The notes: generated by a model from the sequence alone, not told the origin. Shown: positions 14-55,500, numbered from the stretch's first letter. The stretch is 55,630 nucleotides of DNA from an uncultured bacterium (GCA_937935255.1 CALGXT010000136.1:1-55630), one strand, 5' to 3'. Program-made: numbers and translations.

Positions 14-33
14 GGGGTCGCATCTATAAATAT
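14..33 (+). repeat. REP-like repeat family 1 copy (GGGGTCGCATCTATAAATAT), left flank of RAYT gene
   Basis: Exact 20-mer with an AT-rich core in a GC-rich background. Its reverse complement is at 1140-1165 and four more copies lie at 23589-23966. Confidence 0.85.
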
Positions 34-74
34 TATTATTGCAGCGATGGAGCGGATGGGATATTCAAGGGGGT

Positions 75-1115
75 ATGAGCAGGCCCTTGCGCATCTTGAT
101 CGCGGACGGCTGGTATCACGTAACCGCTCGAGGGAACGAGCGGCGGGCGATATTCCGCGAGGACCGGGATCGCACTCGATTTGTCGAGTGCCTCAGCGAG
201 ATGGCGCAACGCTACGCGGTTTGCATTGCCGCCTATGTTCTGATGGATAATCACTATCACCTTTTACTACAGACGCCTCAGGCGAACCTGAGCGCGGCTA
301 TGAAGTGGCTGAACGTGAGCTATACGGTCTGGTTCAACCGACGACATGAACGCGCGGGGCACCTGTTTCAGGGACGGTACTACGCTGTGCTGGTGGAAAG
401 CGAAGGGGGGTGGTTGAGACGCGTGGCGGATTACCTTCATCTGAATCCGGTGAGGATAGCCGCGCTGGGTCTCGGGAAGACGAGGCGTTCGGCAGAGCGC
501 TCCGGCGCGTTGGAAGGGCCGACCCCAGCGCAAGTCGCCGAGCGGTTGAGCGTCCTGCGGTCGCATCGCTGGAGTTCCTATCCGGCATATGCAGGTTACA
601 CACGACCCCCGGAGTGGCTGGCGATGACGGAGATCTTCGAGCGGACGCCCGGCGCCGTAGCGAACCCCCATCGCCGTTACCGGGAGCATCTCGAAGGGCT
701 GCTGAGGCAGGGGATGCCGGAACGCCCCTGGGCGCAACTTCGGGCGCGGCTGGTTTTGGGCTCGGAAAAATTTTGGAGGCAAATCCGAGGAGAGGGCGAC
801 CGGGCGGAGATGACGGCGTTGCGCAAACTGGACCGCCGGACGTCGTGGGAAGAGGTAGTTCGCGCGGTGGAGACGGCGAAAGGGGAAGAGTGGATGGCCT
901 TTCGGGATCGGCACGGGGACTGCGGGCGGGACCTGGCGCTATACGTTGCGCGCCGGCGTTGCGGATTGACGCTCGCCGAGTTGGGGGCGAAGGTCGGCGG
1001 TCTTCGATATAACGCGGTCGCGCAAGCGATACGACTTTTCGGGCAAAAACTCTCCCGCGCCCCTATTCGAACTCTTACCCAAAAAGTCGAATCCCTCCTG
1101 CAAATAAACCCCTGA
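75..1115 (+). CDS. REP-associated tyrosine (Y1, IS200/IS605-like) transposase with C-terminal DnaA-C-like HTH region
   Basis: ORF 39..1115 starts at TTG. The first ATG at 75 gives MSRPLRILIADGWYHVTARGNERR, the usual N-terminus of this family. HUH motif in MDNHYHLLLQTP and a Tyr-bearing HLFQGRYYAV segment. The C-terminal part (GRDLALYVARRRCGLTLAELGAKVGGLRYNAVAQAIRLF) looks like an HTH. The gene is bracketed by inverted repeats. Confidence 0.85.
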   Translation: MSRPLRILIADGWYHVTARGNERRAIFREDRDRTRFVECLSEMAQRYAVCIAAYVLMDNHYHLLLQTPQANLSAAMKWLNVSYTVWFNRRHERAGHLFQGRYYAVLVESEGGWLRRVADYLHLNPVRIAALGLGKTRRSAERSGALEGPTPAQVAERLSVLRSHRWSSYPAYAGYTRPPEWLAMTEIFERTPGAVANPHRRYREHLEGLLRQGMPERPWAQLRARLVLGSEKFWRQIRGEGDRAEMTALRKLDRRTSWEEVVRAVETAKGEEWMAFRDRHGDCGRDLALYVARRRCGLTLAELGAKVGGLRYNAVAQAIRLFGQKLSRAPIRTLTQKVESLLQINP

Positions 1116-1135: not shown

Positions 1136-3973
1136 TCAAATATTCATATTTATAGATGCGACCCCTTTGGGCGCCTTTGGGCGCAGGGCGAACGCGAGCA
1201 GCAGGAGGAGGACGGCAGCGGCGGCCAGGATTCCAATGCGACCGGGCGTCCAACGCTCGAAAGGCGCGGGCGGGCGCTCGACGTCGGCGGTCGGCCAGGG
1301 CAGCGCGGGCAGCTCCTCGTCCGTTTCCGCCTTCAGGATGGCGGCGACGTGTTCGAGGGTCAAACCCGGCGCGCTCAAATACAGCACATCAAAGTTGTGG
1401 GGCAGCCGCGGCGGGTTGCCGTACACGTCCGCGGCGCGGACACGCGGCGGAAGCCGCCGGAGCACGGCGGCGCCGCGTCCCGTCGGCAACAACACCACCG
1501 TGTTTTCCTCAGCGCCGCGATATTCATGCGCGCAAACGGCATCGGAGATCTCACGCCGTTCCGCGAATTTCTTGCCCTCCAACTGCCAGGCCATGTTCGA
1601 GGTCGCCGGCGCGATTTGCGAGAGCCGACCGTCCACGTTGAGATACCCGTACTCCGCGTTCCAGCGATCCATCGGATGGAAGGTGTAGATGAAGACCTTT
1701 TCGGCGCCCGCGGCGAAATTGGCGAGAAAGTAGCGGACATATTGCGCCGCCTGCGCGCGGGCGCGGTCGCGCCCACGCGCGGGGGGAATCTCACGGTAAA
1801 GGTTGAACACCTCGCTCAATCCGTGGCCGCCTTCGCTGTTCCAGATATGCCGCGTCAGGCCGCGATCCGCGAATGTTTCACGAATGACGCTCAAATCGCG
1901 GTCGAATTGATCGCCGGCCAACCCGTAGGACGCGTTGCCGTAGCGGTGAAACGTCACCCCATCCACATACCGCCCGCCGCCCAGATCGCGAACGGCTTCG
2001 TCGAATTTGCGCTCCGATTCGCCGTAGTGCGGTCCGCTGTTCCAAAAGAGCAATCCGCGGTAGCCGGCGGCCTCCGCGGCGGCGCGCGCTCGGCGATTCA
2101 TCTCGACCAGCACTTCGGGGCGCTCGCGCACCGGCCGGCCGTCTTTGATATCCCCGACGAAAAATCCGGGCAGGAACGGCTCGTTCCAAACCTCGACGGC
2201 GCGCACGACCGCGCCCGCGCGCTCGAGCAGACGCCGGGCATAGGTCTCAAAGGCGTCCATCGCGTCCAGGCGCGGCGCCGCCGCGGTGCGATACCACGAG
2301 TTGGCGCCCTCCCAGTTCGGGCCGACCACGGAATATTTCCTCGGCACGCCGCCCAGATGCGTCAGAATCAGCATTCGTTGTTTTTGGTGCAGCGCGATGG
2401 TTCGATCGGCCTTCTCGAAATTCCACGCGCCCTCGGCGTTTTCCATTTCACTCCAGTTGAAACCGTAGTGCACTCGATTCCAGTTGAAGCCGAGCGCCTT
2501 CGCCATGCGCAGGTCCGTCTCCGTCGCGGCGACGTGCGTTCCGAAAGGCGAATCCGGCGCCTCGCGATCCCAATGGCGCGGACGCCGCACGCGATGCAAC
2601 AGGAGCTCCGCCGAATGGCCCACGGCGCGGCCCTCGGCATCCACCGCCCGCAGCGTGACCAGAAAACTGCCGTAGGCGTCGGTCGGCGGCAGCGCCGCCT
2701 CGAACGTCTGGAACCGCGCATCGGCGCGCAATTCGATCGGCGGCAGCGGGCGCTCCACGCCGTAGAGGTCCAACACGGTTCCTTCGATCCGCGCGGCGCG
2801 ACCCGGCTCCCCGACCACGGCGACCCGATAACCCATCGGCTCGTCGTCGAGGCTCAAACCGTAGTCGCGCGCGGCAACGGCGTGCGTCTCGACCGGGCCG
2901 GCCAACCGGTGCGGCCCAGCTTTCTCCGCGACCTCGACCTGCAGCCCGTCCACCCAGAAGGCGCCCTCGTCGTGCGTTGTGATTCGGGCGAGATAAACGA
3001 AATCGGGCGCCGGCGGCAATGCGACGGAGAACTCGTAGCGCCGCCATTCGTCGCTCAAAGTCACCTGGGTCTGCCACGGTGGTTTGTACAGCGCCTCGGC
3101 GGGCGGGCCCAGGCGCAGAAAAAGGTTCATGCCGGGTTTTTCCGCGCGCGCCCAGAGACTGAGCGAATGCGTCGCGCCGGGTTTGCCGACGAACGGCGCG
3201 GTGATCTGCATCATCGGGCGGCCTTCATAGCGATGGGAGACCAGCCGCAGCGCAGGAAGCCCCGGCGGGCCGGGCGTGGCGGGATCGGGCCGGGCGTGTT
3301 CCGGCGTGGAGCCGTTGGCCCCCACCGCCCAGGGCGCGGTCAGGCCGAGGGGAAAGACGGAAGTCGGGAGCAGGTTTCCGTCGAACGAACGCCCGCCCAG
3401 CGCCGCGTCGAACGGCACATACTCGACGCTCAAGGCGCCGACCTCGAGGGCGCCGGCGGCGTTCATCGAGAACGTCAGCACGGCCGCCGGATCGGCGGCG
3501 GCGACGACGGCGAGCGCCTCGTATTCGCCCCACTCGGGCCGCGCGGCGAACACCGTGCTCCAGTAGCTGCGGTAGGGCGCCCCCCGCTGCCGCAGGATGA
3601 GGCTCACCGTCCGGTTGTCCTCGCTGCGCAGCGCCGCGCGGATGCGAATCGCACGCGCGGGGTCCGCGGCGATGTTCGGGACGCGGAACTGCACGGCGCC
3701 GTTGCGCACGGCTTTGACCTCGACGCGAAGCGCGCGAGATCCGGCGAAGGGATTGATTTCCTGAGGGCGGTAATGCGCCTCGACATCCGCCCAGGCCGAA
3801 TCCTCCTCCCAGCCTTCGGGCAAATGGCCGGTGATCGTCGCGCGCGACGAGGCGATTTCGCGGTACTCGCCCTGCACGGTGAACGCGCGGCGGCTCGCCG
3901 GCGGCGCGTCGGCCGCGTCCGCTAAGGCGGATAAAGCCATCCAGCCGATCATCCCACAAAATAACTTTTTCAT
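1136..3973 (-). CDS. Secreted clan GH-A (TIM-barrel) glycoside hydrolase with two N-terminal CBM-like beta-sandwich modules and a C-terminal hydrophobic anchor
   Basis: ORF 1136..4444 trimmed to the ATG at 3973, which gives signal peptide MKKLFCGMIGWMALSALADA. VEVWNEPF (acid/base-type NEP motif) and IWNSEGG (nucleophile-type) lie in the C-terminal half. C-terminal ILAAAAVLLLLLAFALRPK. The exact GH family cannot be assigned by eye. Confidence 0.8.
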   Translation of the reverse strand: MKKLFCGMIGWMALSALADAADAPPASRRAFTVQGEYREIASSRATITGHLPEGWEEDSAWADVEAHYRPQEINPFAGSRALRVEVKAVRNGAVQFRVPNIAADPARAIRIRAALRSEDNRTVSLILRQRGAPYRSYWSTVFAARPEWGEYEALAVVAAADPAAVLTFSMNAAGALEVGALSVEYVPFDAALGGRSFDGNLLPTSVFPLGLTAPWAVGANGSTPEHARPDPATPGPPGLPALRLVSHRYEGRPMMQITAPFVGKPGATHSLSLWARAEKPGMNLFLRLGPPAEALYKPPWQTQVTLSDEWRRYEFSVALPPAPDFVYLARITTHDEGAFWVDGLQVEVAEKAGPHRLAGPVETHAVAARDYGLSLDDEPMGYRVAVVGEPGRAARIEGTVLDLYGVERPLPPIELRADARFQTFEAALPPTDAYGSFLVTLRAVDAEGRAVGHSAELLLHRVRRPRHWDREAPDSPFGTHVAATETDLRMAKALGFNWNRVHYGFNWSEMENAEGAWNFEKADRTIALHQKQRMLILTHLGGVPRKYSVVGPNWEGANSWYRTAAAPRLDAMDAFETYARRLLERAGAVVRAVEVWNEPFLPGFFVGDIKDGRPVRERPEVLVEMNRRARAAAEAAGYRGLLFWNSGPHYGESERKFDEAVRDLGGGRYVDGVTFHRYGNASYGLAGDQFDRDLSVIRETFADRGLTRHIWNSEGGHGLSEVFNLYREIPPARGRDRARAQAAQYVRYFLANFAAGAEKVFIYTFHPMDRWNAEYGYLNVDGRLSQIAPATSNMAWQLEGKKFAERREISDAVCAHEYRGAEENTVVLLPTGRGAAVLRRLPPRVRAADVYGNPPRLPHNFDVLYLSAPGLTLEHVAAILKAETDEELPALPWPTADVERPPAPFERWTPGRIGILAAAAVLLLLLAFALRPKAPKGVASINMNI
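1140..1165 (-). repeat. REP-like repeat family 1 copy, inverted, right flank of RAYT gene
   Basis: ATATTCATATTTATAGATGCGACCCC is the reverse complement of GGGGTCGCATCTATAAATATGAATAT. It overlaps the last codons and stop of the minus-strand gene 1136..3973. Confidence 0.85.
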
Positions 3974-4045
3974 GGCGTCTCTATGGGCGATTTCAGAACG
4001 CCGCACAAGCGCGAAATCATCGAAAAAACAGCGGGAATCCATGTT

Positions 4046-4092
4046 TTCCAAGCCTTGGAAGCCGGCGGCGTTTCTCCTTCCAAGCCTTGGAA
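4046..4092 (-). promoter_or_regulatory. Pair of 15-bp dyads TTCCAAGCCTTGGAA (4046-4060, 4078-4092), candidate operator upstream of 1136..3973
   Basis: Two identical near-palindromes 32 bp apart, about 70-120 bp upstream of the ATG at 3973. The same pair with the same spacing is at 55319-55365. Confidence 0.45.
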
Positions 4093-4285
4093 AACCGCTT
4101 TGGGCGGCGGGGCGCATCGGGCGACGCCGAGGCCGGCGTAATCGCCGCACGGCGAAAATCGCCCGCCCGCCAATTCGCAGCCCACCCTCGCCCACGCCGC
4201 CACTTTTGGGCGCGATTGCTCCTGGCGAAAAGGCGCCGCGCGCGCGCCGCTTGCGCGCGCTTCCGAAGGACTCTATGCTGGCGGC

Positions 4286-5785
4286 ATGACATCCGCGAGA
4301 CCCAACGTTCTCATTTTCATGACCGACCAGCAGCGGGGCGACACGGCGCTGGATGGCGCGCTCAACCGCGCGCGAACGCCCCGGCTGGACCAATTTCGCC
4401 GGGAGGGGCTGACCTTCACGCAGGCGTATTGCCCATCGCCGCATTGCTGCCCCTCCCGCGCGACCTTCCTATCCGGCCATTACCCCAGCCGGCACGGCGT
4501 GTGGAACAACGTCAACGTGGGGAACGCCTTGAGCCGCGAGCCCCGGCCCGACGTCCCGTTTTGGAGCCGCGCGCTGGCCGAGGCCGGCTACGCGATGCGC
4601 TATAGCGGCAAATGGCATATCAGCGATCATGACGGCCCGAGCGCTTTCGGCTGGAGCGAGGGATTCGTCACCGCCTCGCCGTGCCGTCCGCGCAGCGCCG
4701 CTCCGCAAACGCAGGAGTGGGAGATTTATCGCCGGGGCGATATCCTGCCCTCTGACGGCCTCGGCGGGCCGCGCGCGCCCGGCGAAATCCGCCGGCCGGG
4801 CTATCCCCGTTATGTGCATTTCGGCACGGCGGAAAACTCGTTTCGCGACGGCGATGTGGTGGAGGACGCCGTGGCCGCGCTGCCGGAATTGGCGGCGTGC
4901 GGCCGGCCCTGGTGTCTTTTTGTGGGCACCCTCGGCCCGCACGACCCGTATGTCCCGCCGGCAGCCTTTCTCGATCTGTACGATCCCGCCCAGATTCGGC
5001 GGCCCTCCAATTTCGACGACGACCTTCGCGATCGTCCGGCGCTTTATCGGCGAATGCGACGCATTTTCGAACAGCTTTCACCCGACGAGCATCGCGAGAC
5101 CCTCCGGCGATACCTCGCGTTCTGTTCTTATCAGGACCATCTGTTCGGACGCGTGCTCGACGCTTTGGACGCCGCCGGACAGGCGCGCGAAACGCTGGTC
5201 GTCTATCTCTCCGACCACGGCGATTACATGGGAGATCATGGCCTCTGGTGCAAGGGGTTGCCGTGTTTTCGCCCCGCGTATCATGTGCCGTGCGCGGTTC
5301 GGTGGCCGGCGGGCATCCGCGATCCCGGCCGCGCCGTCGAGGCGATGATTTCCCTCGCGGATTTCGCGCCGACCTTGCTGGAGATCGCCGGCCTGGAGTC
5401 GCCGCCATCGCCGTATGCGAACGCCCCGGGCCGTTCGCTGGCCCCCTTTTTCCGGGATCAAACGCCCCCGGACTGGCGAACCGCCCTGTTCACGCAGACC
5501 AACGGCAATGAGCTCTACGGCATTCAGCGGAGCGTATTCACTACCGACTGGCATTTCACCTGGAATGGTTTCGACGAGGATGAGCTTTACGACCTCCGCC
5601 GCGACCCGGGCGAAACCGTGAACCTGGCGAGGGACTCCGCCTATGCGCCGATCGTCCGCGCCTGTATGCGACGCATTTGGCAGTTTGCGTACGAGCAGGA
5701 TGATGTCTGCGTCAACCCCTACATCGCCGTCGGTCTGGCGCCCCTCGGACCGGGCGCGGCGTTCGAGGCAAGCCGCCCGGACTGA
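4286..5785 (+). CDS. Sulfatase (arylsulfatase family, Cys-type formylglycine motif), no signal peptide
   Basis: N-terminus PNVLIFMTDQQRGD. FGly motif CCPSRATFLSGHYPSRHG. LYLSDHGDYMGDHGLWCKG. The protein starts directly with the conserved core, so no leader peptide is visible. Confidence 0.9.
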   Translation: MTSARPNVLIFMTDQQRGDTALDGALNRARTPRLDQFRREGLTFTQAYCPSPHCCPSRATFLSGHYPSRHGVWNNVNVGNALSREPRPDVPFWSRALAEAGYAMRYSGKWHISDHDGPSAFGWSEGFVTASPCRPRSAAPQTQEWEIYRRGDILPSDGLGGPRAPGEIRRPGYPRYVHFGTAENSFRDGDVVEDAVAALPELAACGRPWCLFVGTLGPHDPYVPPAAFLDLYDPAQIRRPSNFDDDLRDRPALYRRMRRIFEQLSPDEHRETLRRYLAFCSYQDHLFGRVLDALDAAGQARETLVVYLSDHGDYMGDHGLWCKGLPCFRPAYHVPCAVRWPAGIRDPGRAVEAMISLADFAPTLLEIAGLESPPSPYANAPGRSLAPFFRDQTPPDWRTALFTQTNGNELYGIQRSVFTTDWHFTWNGFDEDELYDLRRDPGETVNLARDSAYAPIVRACMRRIWQFAYEQDDVCVNPYIAVGLAPLGPGAAFEASRPD

Positions 5786-12669: not shown

Positions 12670-12803
12670 CGCCCGCCGCCCGCGGATCGCGCCGCTGCTC
12701 TCCGCCCCCAGCTGATTCGCGGCGGGCAAATCCGAGGGGCTTGCCGAATGGCGTTGGTAGCGGATTTTCGCGGCGGACGGTCGCGGCGATATGCCGCGGC
12801 GGG

Positions 12804-12835
12804 ACTGTATCACACTTCGCGAAGTGTGATACAGT
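12804..12835. repeat. Palindromic repeat family 2A (ACTGTATCACACTTCGCGAAGTGTGATACAGT)
   Basis: Perfect 32-bp palindrome between convergent gene ends. Nearly identical copies at 14864 and 21022. Confidence 0.9.
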
Positions 12836-12897
12836 CGCGGCACGGCGCAACACGGCGCCCTGCGCCGGCGGGCGGCCCCCATCGCCGGCAATTTCCG

Positions 12898-14616: not shown

Positions 14617-14863
14617 GGCAAAAGCATAGCCCGCGGCGGGCGAACTGACAACCCGCGACTGGACGTCCGGCCTTCTCGATCGAAGGCCTTGCGCGACGCC
14701 GCGCGCCTCCCGTTCGCCCGCCGGCCCGCGGCGTCGCAGCGCTCCGCCTGCAGGGTCGGGTGGAGCCCCGGCAGGCAATAGACGCTGCCCTCAAGTGCGG
14801 GCGGCGGGGAACGCTTCTTTCCTCGCATCGCGGCGGGACTAGCCCCCGAACGACGGCGGACGA

Positions 14864-14893
14864 CTGTATCACACTTCGCGAAGTGTGATACAG
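14864..14893. repeat. Palindromic repeat family 2A copy
   Basis: CTGTATCACACTTCGCGAAGTGTGATACAG, a perfect 30-bp palindrome between tandem minus-strand genes. Confidence 0.9.
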
Positions 14894-14941
14894 CGCCGGC
14901 GGCGGCGCGTTCGACAGCCCGGACGGCGGAGTCGCCCGCGC

Positions 14942-20895: not shown

Positions 20896-21021
20896 GGCGA
20901 TGCGACTCCAATGACCCGGCGACACTAGATGCGCCGCCCGAAAGCGTCAAGCCGCGGAAGGGGAGAATCCTCCCCGAGTTTTCACGCGGAGGAAGAAAGG
21001 TTTCCACCCGCCGCCGGCCGG

Positions 21022-21049
21022 TGTATCACACTTCGCGAAGTGTGATACA
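21022..21049. repeat. Palindromic repeat family 2A copy
   Basis: TGTATCACACTTCGCGAAGTGTGATACA, a perfect 28-bp palindrome between the cupin gene end and the lysS start. Confidence 0.9.
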
Positions 21050-21102
21050 GTCCAAAAAGCGGATCAAAGGTTTCAGGGAGCGGAACGCCGCGCAGGGGCG
21101 CG

Positions 21103-22579: not shown

Positions 22580-23536
22580 TCACAGCCATTTCCAGCGGCG
22601 CATCAGGCCCAACAGAATCACGACCGTCGCCAGACACACCAGCCAAAAAACCAGATAAATCCATTTCCATTCCGCCTCCGGAATGAACATGTTCATGCCG
22701 TACACGCCGCACAAGAAGGTCAGCGGCATGAAAATGGTGCCGACGATCGTCAGACGCTTGACGATGCGGTTGGTGTGGTGGCTGACGGCGCTCAGATAGA
22801 GATTCACGGCGTCGTTCAACGTGTCGCGATGCACGGTCAGGTCTTCGCCGATGCGCTGGACGGCGTCGGCCGTCGCGCGCAGGTGCGGCTGGGTGGATTC
22901 GGGAACGACGGGCGATTTGCGGGTGGCCAGCTCGTGGAGCGTTTCGGCGCCGTCGAGCGCAATCTTTCGGAATTGGAGGAGGCGCCGCGTCAGCGCGGCC
23001 ACGCGGCTGAAGACCTGGTCGTCGCTCGCCGCGAGCAGGTTTTCGTGCAGCCGCTCGACCTCCACGGCAAAACGCCGGCGGCTCCGGCGGTGAATCTCCA
23101 ACAGACTGTCGCCGAGCTCGTACAGCAAGAAACCGTGGCTCCGGCTGAAACGGACAAAGTCTTCGCGATAGGTTTCCGCCATGCGCCGGAGAAATTCGAC
23201 GGGGCCGCGATGCGCCGTCACCAATGCGCGTTCGTTCAGCCATACTCGGACGGCGGCGGTTCGCAACGTTCCATTTTCGTACGACGCTTCCGAGAGGCCG
23301 AAGCACAAGGCGCCCGGCAACACTTCGTAGGCGGTCTCCTCCTCCGGAGCCGCCGCTTTCGCCGCCGCCGCTCCATCGAAACCCAGTCCGATGAGGATCG
23401 CGCGAAGGTCGTCGCCGTCGTCCAAATCCAGATCCAGCCAACAGAACCGGCCGCGCGCAATCCAGGCCGCCGCTTCCGCGGGCGGAATCGCGGTTTCTTC
23501 ACGGGACTGAAAATCGAATGCGACGGCAAAACTCAT
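22580..23536 (-). CDS. corA: Magnesium/cobalt transporter CorA
   Basis: C-terminal FMPLTFLCGVYGMNMF (YGMN motif) plus a final TM helix. ORF 22580..23710 trimmed to the ATG at 23536, because the upstream part is translated REP sequence. Confidence 0.88.
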   Translation of the reverse strand: MSFAVAFDFQSREETAIPPAEAAAWIARGRFCWLDLDLDDGDDLRAILIGLGFDGAAAAKAAAPEEETAYEVLPGALCFGLSEASYENGTLRTAAVRVWLNERALVTAHRGPVEFLRRMAETYREDFVRFSRSHGFLLYELGDSLLEIHRRSRRRFAVEVERLHENLLAASDDQVFSRVAALTRRLLQFRKIALDGAETLHELATRKSPVVPESTQPHLRATADAVQRIGEDLTVHRDTLNDAVNLYLSAVSHHTNRIVKRLTIVGTIFMPLTFLCGVYGMNMFIPEAEWKWIYLVFWLVCLATVVILLGLMRRWKWL

Positions 23537-23588
23537 CGGTATTCCCACCGAACGCCAATCTACGCCGCCGGCGCGCGCTTGACCAGCC

Positions 23589-23748
23589 GGGAAGGACATA
23601 GGGTCGCATCTATAAATATGAGCCGGGAAGGACATAGGGTCGCATCTATAAATATGAATTATGGCGGAGCGGCGCCTTTTTATAAAAGCGGGAAGGACAT
23701 GGGGTCGCATCTATAAATATGAATTATGGCGGAGCGGCGCCTTTTTAT
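23589..23748 (+). repeat. Array of three direct REP family 1 copies (GGGAAGGACAT[A/G]GGGTCGCATCTATAAATATGA...)
   Basis: Copies start at 23589, 23625 and 23690. Copies 2 and 3 share a 65-bp unit that includes GAATTATGGCGGAGCGGCGCCTTTTTAT. Confidence 0.9.
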
Positions 23749-23942
23749 CGTTCGGCCGGCAGGACGTCAGCTTTCTTGGCGACGACCTGAAGCTTGAGGC
23801 GGTTCCCTGTCTGCTCGAAGAGCCGGATCACCAGCGCGACGGTGTTCTACCGCAAACCAACAGCCTTGACGCACAATTCGGCGAGGTTCAGCCCGCAAAC
23901 CCTGCGTGCAGGGTCCAGCGCCAAGTCCCGGCACGCGAGAAT
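23745..23942 (-). pseudogene. Decayed 3' remnant of a RAYT (Y1 transposase) paralog
   Basis: The minus strand reads ILACRDLALDPARRVCGLNLAELCVKAVGLR*NTVALVIRLFEQTGNRLKLQVV... This aligns with CGRDLALYVARRRCGLTLAELGAKVGGLRYNAVAQAIRLFGQKLSR of the intact protein at 75..1115. There is an in-frame TAG where the intact copy has Tyr, and the N-terminal ~290 codons are absent. Confidence 0.8.
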
Positions 23943-23966
23943 ATTCATATTTATAGATGCGACCCC
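23941..23966 (-). repeat. REP family 1 copy, inverted relative to the 23589-23748 array
   Basis: ATATTCATATTTATAGATGCGACCCC, identical to 1140-1165. It directly abuts the RAYT remnant and lies 10 nt after the stop of the next gene. Confidence 0.9.
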
Positions 23967-23975
23967 GCAGCGCGC

Positions 23976-25472
23976 CTATCGCGTCGCCAACATCGCGTTG
24001 ATGGCGGCGGCGGCGCGGCGGCCTTCGCCCATGGCGAGGATGACCGTCGCGGCGCCGAGCACGATGTCGCCGCCGGCATAGACGCGCTCGAGCGACGTCT
24101 GGCCCGTCGCTTCGTCCGCCAAGATCGTGCCCCAGCGCGAGGTTTGCAGACCCTCGGTCGTCTGCCGGATGAGCGGATTCGGTTCGTTGCCGATGGCGAC
24201 AATGACCGTGTCCACGTCCATGACAAATTCGCTGCCCTTCACCTCGACCGGTCGGCGGCGGCCCGATTCGTCGGGCTCGCCCAGTTCGTAGCGGACGCAC
24301 TCGATCGCCTTCACCCGCCCGTACTCGTCGCCCAAAATCCGCTTCGCGTTTTGGAGGAGATGAAATTCGACGCCCTCCTCTTTGGCGTGCGCCACTTCCT
24401 CGACCCGCGCCGGCATTTCCACCTCGGTGCGGCGATAGACGAGATGCACCTCCTCCGCGCCGATCCGCAGCGCCATGCGCGCGGCGTCCATCGCCACATT
24501 CCCGCCGCCGAGCACCGCGACTTTGCGCGAGGGATAGATCGGCGTGTGGGCGCGCGCCTTGTCGTAGGCCCGCATCAAATTCGCGCGCGTCAGATATTCG
24601 TTGGCTGAAAAGACGCCGACGAGATTCTCGCCGGGGATGTTCATGAACTTTGGCAGCCCCGCGCCCGCGCCGATGAAGACGGCATCGTAGCCGTCCTCGT
24701 CGAGCAACTGCCGCAGCGTGCGCGTGCGCCCGACCACAAAATTCGTCCGGATTTCCACGCCCATCGCACGCAACGTCGCGATCTCGAGTTCGACAATTCT
24801 TTTCGGCAGACGAAACTCCGGGATGCCATAGAGCAGCACGCCCCCCGGCTTGTGGAAGGCCTCGAACATCGTCACCGCATGGCCCTCGCGCCGCACATCC
24901 GCCGCCACCGTGATGCTCGCCGGCCCGCTGCCGATCACCGCCACTTTCTTGCCGGTTTCGGGCTTCACCGCCGGCGGCGCCGCGCAGCCCTGCTCCCGCT
25001 CCCAGTCGGCCGCGTAGCGCTCCAGCCGCCCGATCGCCACGGCGGCGTTCACGTCCTTGAGCGCCTTGCCGACCGTGCACTTTTCCTGGCACTGTGTCTC
25101 TTGCGGGCACACACGCCCGCAAATCGCCGGCAGGATGGTGTTGCGTTTGAGAATCGCGATCGCTTCTTCCAACCGATTCTCGGCGATCGCGCGCACAAAG
25201 CCGGGGATATCAATGCGGACGGGACAGCCTTCGATGCACGGCGCATTTTTGCATTGCCAGCAGCGCAGCGCCTCCAGTCGCGCCTGCGCCGGACCGAAGC
25301 CGAGCGCCACCTCCTCGATGTTGCCGCGCCGGACTGCCGCCGGCTGCGAAGGCATCGGCTGCGGCGGGATTTTCAGGCGGTCTTTCGCTTTCAGCGGTTC
25401 CGCGCGCGCCAAAAGGGCATCCAACTGCGCGCGCGCCTCGGCCTCCAGCGTTTCGGGGGTCGCATGCGTCAT
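23976..25472 (-). CDS. nfnB: GltD-like NAD(P)H oxidoreductase, NfnB-type (SudA-like) subunit
   Basis: Two Cys clusters (CWQCKNAPCIEGCPV; ICGRVCPQETQCQEKC). Dinucleotide motifs KVAVIGSGPAS and KVAVLGGGNVAMDAA. Overlaps the upstream PyrK-like gene. Confidence 0.8.
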   Translation of the reverse strand: MTHATPETLEAEARAQLDALLARAEPLKAKDRLKIPPQPMPSQPAAVRRGNIEEVALGFGPAQARLEALRCWQCKNAPCIEGCPVRIDIPGFVRAIAENRLEEAIAILKRNTILPAICGRVCPQETQCQEKCTVGKALKDVNAAVAIGRLERYAADWEREQGCAAPPAVKPETGKKVAVIGSGPASITVAADVRREGHAVTMFEAFHKPGGVLLYGIPEFRLPKRIVELEIATLRAMGVEIRTNFVVGRTRTLRQLLDEDGYDAVFIGAGAGLPKFMNIPGENLVGVFSANEYLTRANLMRAYDKARAHTPIYPSRKVAVLGGGNVAMDAARMALRIGAEEVHLVYRRTEVEMPARVEEVAHAKEEGVEFHLLQNAKRILGDEYGRVKAIECVRYELGEPDESGRRRPVEVKGSEFVMDVDTVIVAIGNEPNPLIRQTTEGLQTSRWGTILADEATGQTSLERVYAGGDIVLGAATVILAMGEGRRAAAAINAMLATR

Positions 25473-31950: not shown

Positions 31951-32144
31951 CCTCCGCTCTCCGCTCTTCCGATCTCTGCGCTCTCGGCGTCTCCGCGGTG
32001 CAATCCCGGGCCGCGCGGCAGGCTCTGCTCTCGCTTCGACTATCTCACACCTTCGAAGGTGTGATATAGTCGCCGCACCGATGCGGAACCCTGAAAAGAG
32101 GACAAAAAAACAGGTTTGCGCTGGCGCTGGCGTTGCCTTCCGCT
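31951..32144 (+). repeat. Duplicated intergenic segment, copy 1 (contains family 2B palindrome at 32040-32069)
   Basis: Aligns over ~190 bp with 32392-32581, roughly 85% identical by eye with small indels. Ends in CCGCTATGCTGGCCG. Confidence 0.85.
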
Positions 32145-32391: not shown

Positions 32392-32581
32392 CCTCCGCTC
32401 TCTGCGTTCTCGGCGCCTCCACGGTGCAATCCCGGGCCGCGCGACGGGCTGTGTTCTCGCTTCGGCTATCTCACACCTTCGAAGGGGTGAGATAGCCGCC
32501 GCACCGATGCGGAATCCTGGAAAGAGGACGGAAAAACAGGTTTTGCGCTGGCGTCGCCGTCGCCGTCCGCTATGCTGGCCG
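32392..32581 (+). repeat. Duplicated intergenic segment, copy 2 (contains family 2B palindrome at 32466-32495), immediately upstream of deoA
   Basis: See copy 1. Its CCGCTATGCTGGCCG end lies about 35 nt before the deoA ATG. Confidence 0.85.
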
Positions 32582-55300: not shown

Positions 55301-55318
55301 ACGAACGAACGCCGCATT

Positions 55319-55365
55319 TTCCAAGGCTTGGAAAAGCGCGGCCCCACGTCTTCCAAGGCTTGGAA
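55319..55365 (+). promoter_or_regulatory. Pair of 15-bp dyads TTCCAAGGCTTGGAA (55319-55333, 55351-55365), candidate operator upstream of 55501
   Basis: Same motif, orientation relative to the downstream gene, and 32-bp phasing as 4046-4092. Confidence 0.45.
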
Positions 55366-55500
55366 AACGAGCGCCGCCCGAACCCCGCCGCCCGCGATCG
55401 CCGTCCAATCACCGGGCGCTTTGGGAAGGAACAGTAAAGATTCCACTGCCGGGAAGCGTTCCATCGGCGTATGATGCGTTCGACCGCGAAGGAGTTCGCC

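Follow-up and report, generated by a model that had tools for sequence, protein, structure and literature searches.

What is the block of repeats at positions 23589-23966 of contig CALGXT010000136.1 (GCA_937935255.1, an uncultured bacterium), and what does it owe to the transposase gene at the beginning of the same contig? We analyzed this contig at its full length of 55,630 nt, hereafter the window. A sequence-only reading had described the block as a cluster of repetitive extragenic palindromic (REP) sequences enclosing the decayed 3' end of a second REP-associated tyrosine transposase (RAYT) gene. The decayed gene is confirmed here; the REP and RAYT labels are not. The block is probably a dead, 5'-truncated TIRtron, with an intact unit of the same clade at 14-1165. 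Di Nocera, De Gregorio, and Rocco coined the terms TIRYT, for a RAYT-like gene with flanking terminal inverted repeats (TIRs), and TIRtron, for the whole unit, in 2013 (PMC3733652). Judged by its sequence, the element belongs with these: GGGG-headed, non-hairpin TIRs together with a class 2 Y1 gene carrying a DnaA-like C-terminus argue for the label TIRtron and place the gene as a TIRYT of TnpA(Y1) subclass 2.1.2, rather than in a REP/RAYT system. Few Y1 HUH enzymes are as widespread as the TIRYTs (subclass 2.1, or RAYT Group 1), which may be selfish transposases or domesticated genes.

The transposase remnant and the intact element

The features on which the argument turns are given below. 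Two assemblies of nearly identical strains were aligned with the window and are referred to as L006 (ENA ERZ6863929, 99.9% nucleotide identity to the window) and L007 (Logan ERR9287890, 98.6-99.5%); L-numbers likewise denote the contigs of other relatives.

14-37 (+): left TIR of the intact element, GGGGTCGCATCTATAAATAT, then TATT as its left-type inner flank; an imperfect inverted repeat spans 11-45
75-1115 (+): intact TIRYT gene, 346 aa, with a Y1 HUH nuclease domain and a C-terminal DnaA domain IV-like helix-turn-helix (HTH)
1142-1165 (-): right TIR of the intact element, with plus-strand sequence ATTCATATTTATAGATGCGACCCC
23585-23748: tandem array, a 36-bp unit x2 plus a 65-bp unit x1.9, each unit consisting of a TIR and a 12-13 nt outer tail
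23601-23621 (+): right TIR copy R3, a 21-nt core in the 36-bp tandem unit, nearest corA
23637-23659 (+): right TIR copy R2, in the 65-bp tandem unit; missing from L007, a different unit in L006
23701-23724 (+): R1, the right TIR of the remnant, shared by all three assemblies of the strain group
23745-23933 (-): TIRYT pseudogene remnant, codons about 283-346, DnaA-like HTH domain only, with its own stop
23745-23747 (-): natural stop codon of the remnant, TAA
23847-23849 (-): in-frame TAG at the family-invariant Tyr312
23943-23966 (-): TIR copy upstream of the remnant (in gene orientation), 10 nt past the nfnB stop, inner flank GAATATT

Searching the window with the intact protein (tblastn) returned a single significant second match, on the minus strand at 23930-23760, in which 30 of 57 residues (285-341) are identical (E = 6.9e-10 with composition correction, 8e-10 without). 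The family hidden Markov model (HMM) recovers the same segment (E = 1.4e-10), and its Smith-Waterman score of 125 compares with 26.7 +/- 4.2 for 2000 shuffles. The similarity to the C-terminus of the intact protein that had been read from the minus strand of the interior is thus significant in a formal alignment of remnant and intact gene (z = 23.6), with identities of 52.6% at the amino acid and 62.6% at the nucleotide level.

The remnant also carries the marks of decay. As had been proposed, a TAG stands in place of a tyrosine codon; the residue is Tyr312, invariant in an alignment of 38 relatives, on which we judged conservation throughout, and in DnaA the aligned residue is the His of GGRDHTTV, where the recognition helix begins. 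Valine replaces the nearly invariant G308 and A318, the nearly invariant G284 is absent, and no start codon in the remnant lies ahead of a complete domain. With a TAG at an invariant position and conserved residues lost, the remnant is a pseudogene. Copies of the repeat known from the flanks of the intact gene enclose what is left of a second transposase gene, its 3' end. The inverted repeat had been said to abut the fragment directly, with about 290 codons deleted. Near-adjacency and truncation hold; homology begins about 10 nt past the repeat, at codon 283-285, so that about 283 codons are gone and roughly the last 63 are kept.

The repeat ties the two gene copies together. Exactly six copies of its 19-nt core, GGGTCGCATCTATAAATAT, are present in the window (15+, 1146-, 23601+, 23637+, 23702+, and 23947-), with no additional copy at up to three mismatches and 0 matches in 100 shuffles. 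All six copies sit at the ends of gene copies, two at the intact gene and four at 23601-23966. With the 12-nt outer tail CGGGAAGGACAT included, the three direct copies begin at 23588/9, 23624/5, and 23689/90, which recovers the starts given earlier (23589, 23625, and 23690), and the facing inverted arm, now placed at 23943-23966, is fully complementary to each of them (24/24 to R1, 23/23 to R2, and 21/21 to R3). At the intact element the corresponding ends form a 20-nt perfect inverted repeat (14-33/1146-1165) within an extended pair of 35 nt at 86% complementarity. Homologous elements are built alike: inverted repeats with the head GGGGTCGCATCTA flank homologues at 91% (L010), 73% (L012), and 64% (L013) identity, and a 60% homologue (L014-16) has the head GGGGTCATGTCTAAAG. 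That every copy touches a gene copy, and that homologues carry homologous inverted repeats, supports the earlier view that repeats and transposase form one system. Comparison of these sequences indicates that in this family the repeats are far better conserved than the genes, which accounts for a remnant of 62.6% nucleotide identity lying between repeats that match at 24 of 24 positions.

The intact protein matches Y1_Tnp (PF01797, E = 8e-16), with the HUH motif N59-H60-Y61-H62 and the catalytic motif Y120-L-H-L-N124-P125; H60, H62, Y120, H122, N124, and P125 are invariant, constituting an HUH pair and the class 2 signature Y-x-x-x-N-P. Residues of about 250-345 form the DnaA domain IV-like HTH domain. 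A profile of the family matches DnaA structures (8btg, E = 1.5e-5; 1l8q and 2hcb, E = 3.2e-5), among them the Escherichia coli complex of domain IV with a DnaA box (1j1v, E = 4e-4), and sets the family motif GGlDYaaV opposite GGRDHTTV. Individually, 9 of the 38 relatives match Pfam Bac_DnaA_C (PF08299); the intact window protein alone gives no Pfam-significant match to this domain at its C-terminus. The family is large, with more than 5000 matches of about 345-350 aa, some of them labelled Verrucomicrobiae transposases.

From these parts, a mechanism can be sketched. A TIRtron of this kind is a unit of about 1.15 kb in which the TIRYT gene lies between TIRs of about 24 nt starting GGGGTCGC. 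The repeat would be the recognition site of the enzyme, bound by the DnaA-like domain and cut at its end by the HUH/Tyr core. The parent of the relic would have belonged to a diverged sister lineage using the same repeats, and would have lost its catalytic part through a deletion, or through a rearrangement involving a second repeat copy. The upstream TIR bears on the last step: its inner flank, GAATATT, is of the type found at the right end of the intact element (GAATATTT), whereas the left end has TATTATT, and its surroundings match 1139-1176 at 34 of 38 nt, including GCGCCT outside the repeat. The flank suggests that this TIR may not be the original left end but a secondary repeat copy, a second right end. 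The relic would not be self-mobile, and might serve in trans as a substrate of the intact enzyme encoded 22 kb away.

Two further observations concern the intact element. A host open reading frame at 1136-4444 (-), with a hydrophobic C-terminal stretch, runs into the right TIR at its end (1136-1165): the repeat encodes its last residues, GVASINMNI*, and its stop codon lies inside or next to the repeat; the element thus supplies the 3' end of a host gene. Within the TIRYT gene, 557-567 (codons L-R-S-H-R-W) reads GCGGTCGCATC, equal at 10 of 11 positions to the repeat head GGGGTCGCATC, and the same codons in L010, L011, and L012 keep GCGGTCGCATC-type sequence, as in every copy examined. Coding constraint and chance could together account for this likeness; it could also mark an internal binding site.

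The end array, its relatives, and the 266-nt doublet

The earlier reading placed the last two direct repeats in a 65-bp tandem unit, and this unit is real: Tandem Repeats Finder reports it x1.9 at 23624-23748 (98% matches), next to a 36-bp unit x2.0 at 23585-23657 (100%). Read on the minus strand, the outer tail of the units is (C/T)ATGTCCTTCCCG. In the three-way alignment, the nfnB end, the upstream repeat, the remnant, and the first downstream repeat with its tail are identical in every assembly. The array beyond differs, with three downstream repeat copies in the window, two in L006, and one in L007. The second unit of L006 has a filler of its own, TTTGGGGTTTTTCAACGGAA, and a GCGCCCC variant, and the single repeat of L007 is followed by two adjacent ATGTCCTTCCCG tails with CT between them. 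The comparison of related strains that had been proposed yields an identical relic and a variable array, and no empty site. Such an array would grow or shrink by slippage, by unequal recombination between units, or by enzyme-mediated end reactions, and it offers a concrete place to seek activity in population reads.

Multiplied ends recur across the family. L013 has two direct repeat copies upstream of its gene; L014-16 have two full copies and partial heads, with G-rich partial heads on the opposite side; and L004 has three heads with GGAGGAAG tails. The outer tails are alike, GGGAAGGACAT in the window, GGAGGACCAT in L014, and GGAGGAAG in L004. Slippage at G-rich ends and enzyme chemistry are both candidate causes. 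Just outside the GGGG head in L004 (840-1033) and L014 (1371-1470 and about 2540-2640) lie tandem purine-rich units, GGAGGAAGGG, GGACCATGG, and GGGGAAGGGT, with truncated heads alongside; their G-tract runs could in principle form G-quadruplexes.

The relatives also show how copies arise and degenerate. One metagenome-assembled genome (MAG), CALHRZ01, holds an intact copy with both repeats (L002/L010; protein P0001, 91% amino acid and 89% nucleotide identity), an internal-deletion copy in which about 80 N-terminal codons are joined to about 50 C-terminal ones (L003; HYH changed to HYP, and a TAG), and a 122-nt 3' stub with a repeat (L001). L003 and L001 are 94-96% identical to L010; a single genome bin has thus seen this element both multiply and decay. 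A further relative, L005, has a premature TAG; its gene is 64% (amino acid) and 71% (nucleotide) identical to the intact copy, and its left end matches at 31 of 32 nt. The view that copies are born and decay is upheld by these internal-deletion, stub, and premature-stop copies. Many other homologues lie on contigs of about 1.1-1.4 kb, roughly the size of the element, as expected if a multi-copy element breaks assemblies. Taken together, the locus and its relatives give sequence-level support to insertion sequence (IS)-like behavior, with several copies per genome and decay by internal deletion, truncation, and stops.

The perfect repeats and the variable array invite another reading, namely that the 266-nt doublet at 23701-23966 is a live non-autonomous element, akin to a miniature inverted-repeat transposable element (MITE) or to a hairpin-forming REP doublet (REPIN), moved in trans by the TIRYT, with extra ends made by the enzyme rather than by slippage. 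Both TIRs of the doublet are perfect and the same as those of the intact element, although the interior is 37% diverged; the number of ends varies among strains at least 98.6% identical; the L006 unit with its own filler is not a simple duplication; L004, L013, and L014-16 likewise have multiplied ends with a purine-rich outer tail; and dimers and clusters of TIRs were described by Di Nocera et al. (PMC3733652). The perfect TIRs are explained equally well by the general conservation of the repeats, as L005 illustrates, and the units, which include 12-13 nt beyond the core and stand head to tail at 36 and 65 bp, look like products of slippage or unequal crossing-over. Neither a second doublet nor its interior was found in the window or in the genome, metagenome, viral, and protein collections searched, and neither a target-site duplication (at the flanks CTGC/GGGG and CCCC/ATGT) nor a conserved target is visible. 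Among the outer flanks of 12 ends, no common target was found, and the only recurrent feature is the purine-rich tail on some of them. A live doublet is therefore, in our judgment, doubtful.

A bolder form of this idea holds that the repeat ends, about 21-24 nt of core plus the purine-rich tail, are the units that the TIRYT copies or deposits, and that the doublet is a nascent REPIN-like non-autonomous element. We think this unlikely; if true, the locus would be natural evidence of TIRYTs spreading repeats, a snapshot of doublets arising from a transposase-bearing element, with an end array turning over between strains 98.6-99.9% identical. More speculatively, and by analogy with the DnaA boxes at an origin, the end arrays might provide multiple binding sites for the DnaA-like domain. 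A likeness of the repeat itself to a DnaA box reached at best 5 of 9 positions by eye and is not claimed.

The repeat and the REP/RAYT label

We next consider whether the block could, as first described, be a REP cluster, similar to a bacterial interspersed mosaic element (BIME) and drawn from a genome-wide REP family, with a domesticated single-copy RAYT at 75-1115 and a decayed second RAYT as the fossil. Several features speak for this. The enzyme belongs to class 2, resembles TnpA(REP), and has the Y-x-x-x-N-P motif; among NCBIfam models it matches REP_Tyr_transpos (NF047646) best, and some sources give the name RayT to its relatives; and inverted repeats beside the gene, along with a local cluster, are REP-like. 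The match to NF047646 scores 68.7 bits, below the cut-off of 80 for this RayT equivalog; the IS200 equivalog NF033573 likewise stays below its own cut-off (22.6 against 55 bits). The gene is better described as a longer, TIR-associated type with a DnaA domain IV-like C-terminus.

The repeats themselves depart further from REPs. DNA folds of all ends gave -2.4 to -10.5 kcal/mol (z -1.7 to +1.4 against shuffles), so single units have no hairpin; stable stems form only outside the repeat. Its head reads GGGG(T)C, neither GTAG nor CGTC. Many TIRYT repeats share the head GGGGWSAS and at times occur as dimers or clusters (PMC3733652); GGGGTCGC agrees with this consensus at 7 of 8 positions, with G in place of A at position 7, and the L014 head GGGGTCAT likewise at 7 of 8.

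Distribution, as far as the window and the scanned collections show it, points the same way. Within 55 kb, no copy of the repeat lies away from gene ends. We scanned GTDB representative genomes, JGI metagenomes, and viral contigs, none of which includes the contig of the window, for the exact 19-mer. It occurred at three loci in the GTDB representatives, all in CALHRZ01, on two short JGI contigs, and in no viral contig, so that only five loci outside the strain group turned up in these scans, and all five carry a TIRYT gene or element-end sequence. A plasmid search returned just 17 distant matches, every one below 60% identity. Several copies at 94-96% identity in one MAG are IS-like, not what is expected of a single-copy domesticated gene, and subclass 2.1 as published has no REPs (PMC6006769). 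On this evidence a REP/RAYT system is distinctly improbable.

The window does hold palindromes of other kinds. Near-perfect palindromes of about 34 nt, GACTGTATCACACTTCGCGAAGTGTGATACAGTC, lie at 12803-12841, 14862-14900, and 21019-21057, with variants, GACTATCTCACACCTTCGAAGGTGTGATATAGTC, at 32038-32076 and 32464-32502, both inside a 150-nt duplication (31968-32117/32394-32543, 89% identical). This family looks like true REP-like or operator/terminator hairpins and is unrelated to the transposase repeat. A second small palindromic family, paired TTTTCCAAGSCTTGGAAAA 32 nt apart, occurs at 4039-4094 and 55312-55367.

The nfnB-corA spacer and comparison with known systems

The host genes on either side are both on the minus strand, and their earlier naming as nfnB and corA agrees with their domains.

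22580-23536 (-): corA, downstream host gene (PF01544, E = 6e-49), start codon 52 nt from the array end
23976-25472 (-): nfnB/gltD-like oxidoreductase, upstream host gene, with Fer4_20 and Pyr_redox_2 domains

The nfnB/gltD-like gene is preceded upstream by one with a DHODB_Fe-S_bind domain, and the pair would fit an NfnAB-type oxidoreductase. The CorA of the window is also encoded on L006 and L007. The sample of the window strain has, in addition, contigs (L017/L018; ERZ6863929 c_000000961726 and ERR9287890) whose CorA is just 56% identical. Assembly ERZ6863929 also holds the TIRYT at 91% identity, carried with identical repeats by the MAG from that sample. If the contig belongs to this MAG, the element would be much more alike than the hosts, pointing to horizontal transfer; we treat this as only a lead.

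In a more distant relative, L008 (corA 82% and nfnB 85% identical at the nucleotide level), a 424-aa pectate-lyase-like gene lies between the two genes. Homology between the window and L008 ends at 23981 and restarts at about 23588, exactly at the array end, so that the block 23589-23980 stands where L008 has about 1.37 kb, comprising the 424-aa gene and the last nfnB codons. NfnB ends in AMLATR* in the window and in AMLADAPARSSKNKGTL* in L008 (1318-1355), making the window protein about 11 residues shorter. A homology breakpoint 15 nt from the repeat argues that a rearrangement rewrote the NfnB C-terminus. Compared with L008, the block has remodelled both the 3' end of nfnB and the region upstream of corA.

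This position raises the possibility that the remnant still functions, as a small DNA-binding protein (for example, an inhibitor of transposition) or as a cis-regulatory module for corA. What survives is a DNA-binding domain, an ATG in the upstream TIR opens a frame (MNILACRDL...), the block is 100% conserved in the three assemblies, and one promoter-like site is directed at corA. The TAG ends that frame after 32 codons, ahead of the recognition helix, with conserved residues lost, and conservation among assemblies this close carries no information. The promoter-like site, a weak one and the only one in a scan of the block that also found no convincing terminator, compares with 0.4 expected and falls at the junction of the 65-bp duplication, found in only one of the three alleles. 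An Rfam scan of the block found no RNA family. We regard a functional remnant as very improbable. That the protein similarity is a chance or composition artefact of G+C-rich DNA, as might be suspected of 57 aligned residues in an Ala/Arg/Gly-rich genome, is refuted by the composition-corrected, shuffle, and HMM statistics above and by the register of the match with the gene stop and the downstream repeat.

Several points weigh against the reading of the block as a truncated TIRtron, or limit what it explains. A simple internal deletion, as in L003, does not explain the right-end-type flank of the upstream repeat. The 190-nt remnant did not turn up a second time in the window or the collections searched, close strains offered no empty site, and L008 and more distant relatives no clean one, so insertion at this spacer is inferred rather than demonstrated. 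L008 is the sole outgroup, which leaves gene loss here and gain in L008 unpolarized, and more distant relatives have yet other genes upstream of corA. Of 120 family members, the best matches of the remnant are the intact window protein (53%) and P0001 (54%), and a search of the remnant peptide against a 5.8-billion-protein collection found no closer parent sharing enough words; lacking a close parent, prolonged neutral decay at this site and a recent truncation of a rare lineage are equally possible. The differences by codon position (19/18/27) do not discriminate between these two histories, nor, taken with those by codon (14 synonymous, 27 non-synonymous), between neutral decay and divergence of a functional paralogue. 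The copy-number differences rest on short-read assemblies, while the distinct L006 filler argues against mere collapse. Finally, the available parts of PMC3733652 and PMC6006769 report no binding or cleavage experiment on any TIRYT.

A truncated TIRtron remains, in our assessment, the best account of the block. The relic is real but fairly ordinary and of modest interest; what it offers specialists is a repeat doublet derived from a gene, an array that varies at the strain level, and multiplied ends that recur in the family.

Among known systems, the IS200/IS605 elements (IS608, ISDra2) share the catalytic superfamily PF01797, multi-copy behavior, and decay to deletion derivatives; unlike the element here, they have subterminal hairpins in direct orientation, no TIRs, and a transposase of about 130-150 aa without an HTH. 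MITEs and internally deleted IS derivatives resemble the 266-nt doublet as short non-coding units whose ends are the TIRs of an autonomous element in the same genome, whereas the doublet is known once (the window and the scanned collections yielded no further copy of its interior), shows no target-site duplication, and has an upstream TIR like a second right end. REPs and REPINs with their RAYTs (TnpA-REP/RayT of E. coli; Pseudomonas REPINs) share a related Y1 enzyme, inverted repeats beside the gene, and local clusters, and differ in that the repeats are short palindromes forming hairpins, headed by GTAG and numbering tens to hundreds of extragenic copies, while the RAYT is single-copy.

Closer is TnpA(Y1) subclass 2.1, to which Quentin et al. 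(2018) assigned 20 of 26 TIRYTs (PMC6006769); in the scheme of Bertels et al. (2017; PMC5581495) it is RAYT Group 1. Its subgroup 2.1.2 is described with a Bac_DnaA_C-like C-terminus and no REPs nearby, and class 2 genes have few copies, poorly conserved within a genome (PMC6006769). Like these, the element here combines Y-x-x-x-N-P, a long protein, a Bac_DnaA_C-like HTH, no REP-like hairpins near the gene, and low copy number with poorly conserved copies, the two in the window being 53% identical. The three CALHRZ01 copies, at 94-96% identity, are unlike that class-wide description and more IS-like.

The closest likeness is to the TIRtrons themselves, as far as the available part of PMC3733652 describes them. 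A repeat pair enclosing a 3' gene remnant, and an array varying among near-identical strains, are unlike the descriptions given there. Shared with them are a Y1 gene with HUH and a catalytic Tyr, longer than RAYTs, and non-hairpin TIRs that sometimes form dimers or clusters, at low to moderate copy number; the source organisms include Acidobacteria and bacteria of the Planctomycetes-Verrucomicrobia-Chlamydiae (PVC) group, among others. For this locus, the REP/RAYT label should give way to TIRtron/TIRYT.

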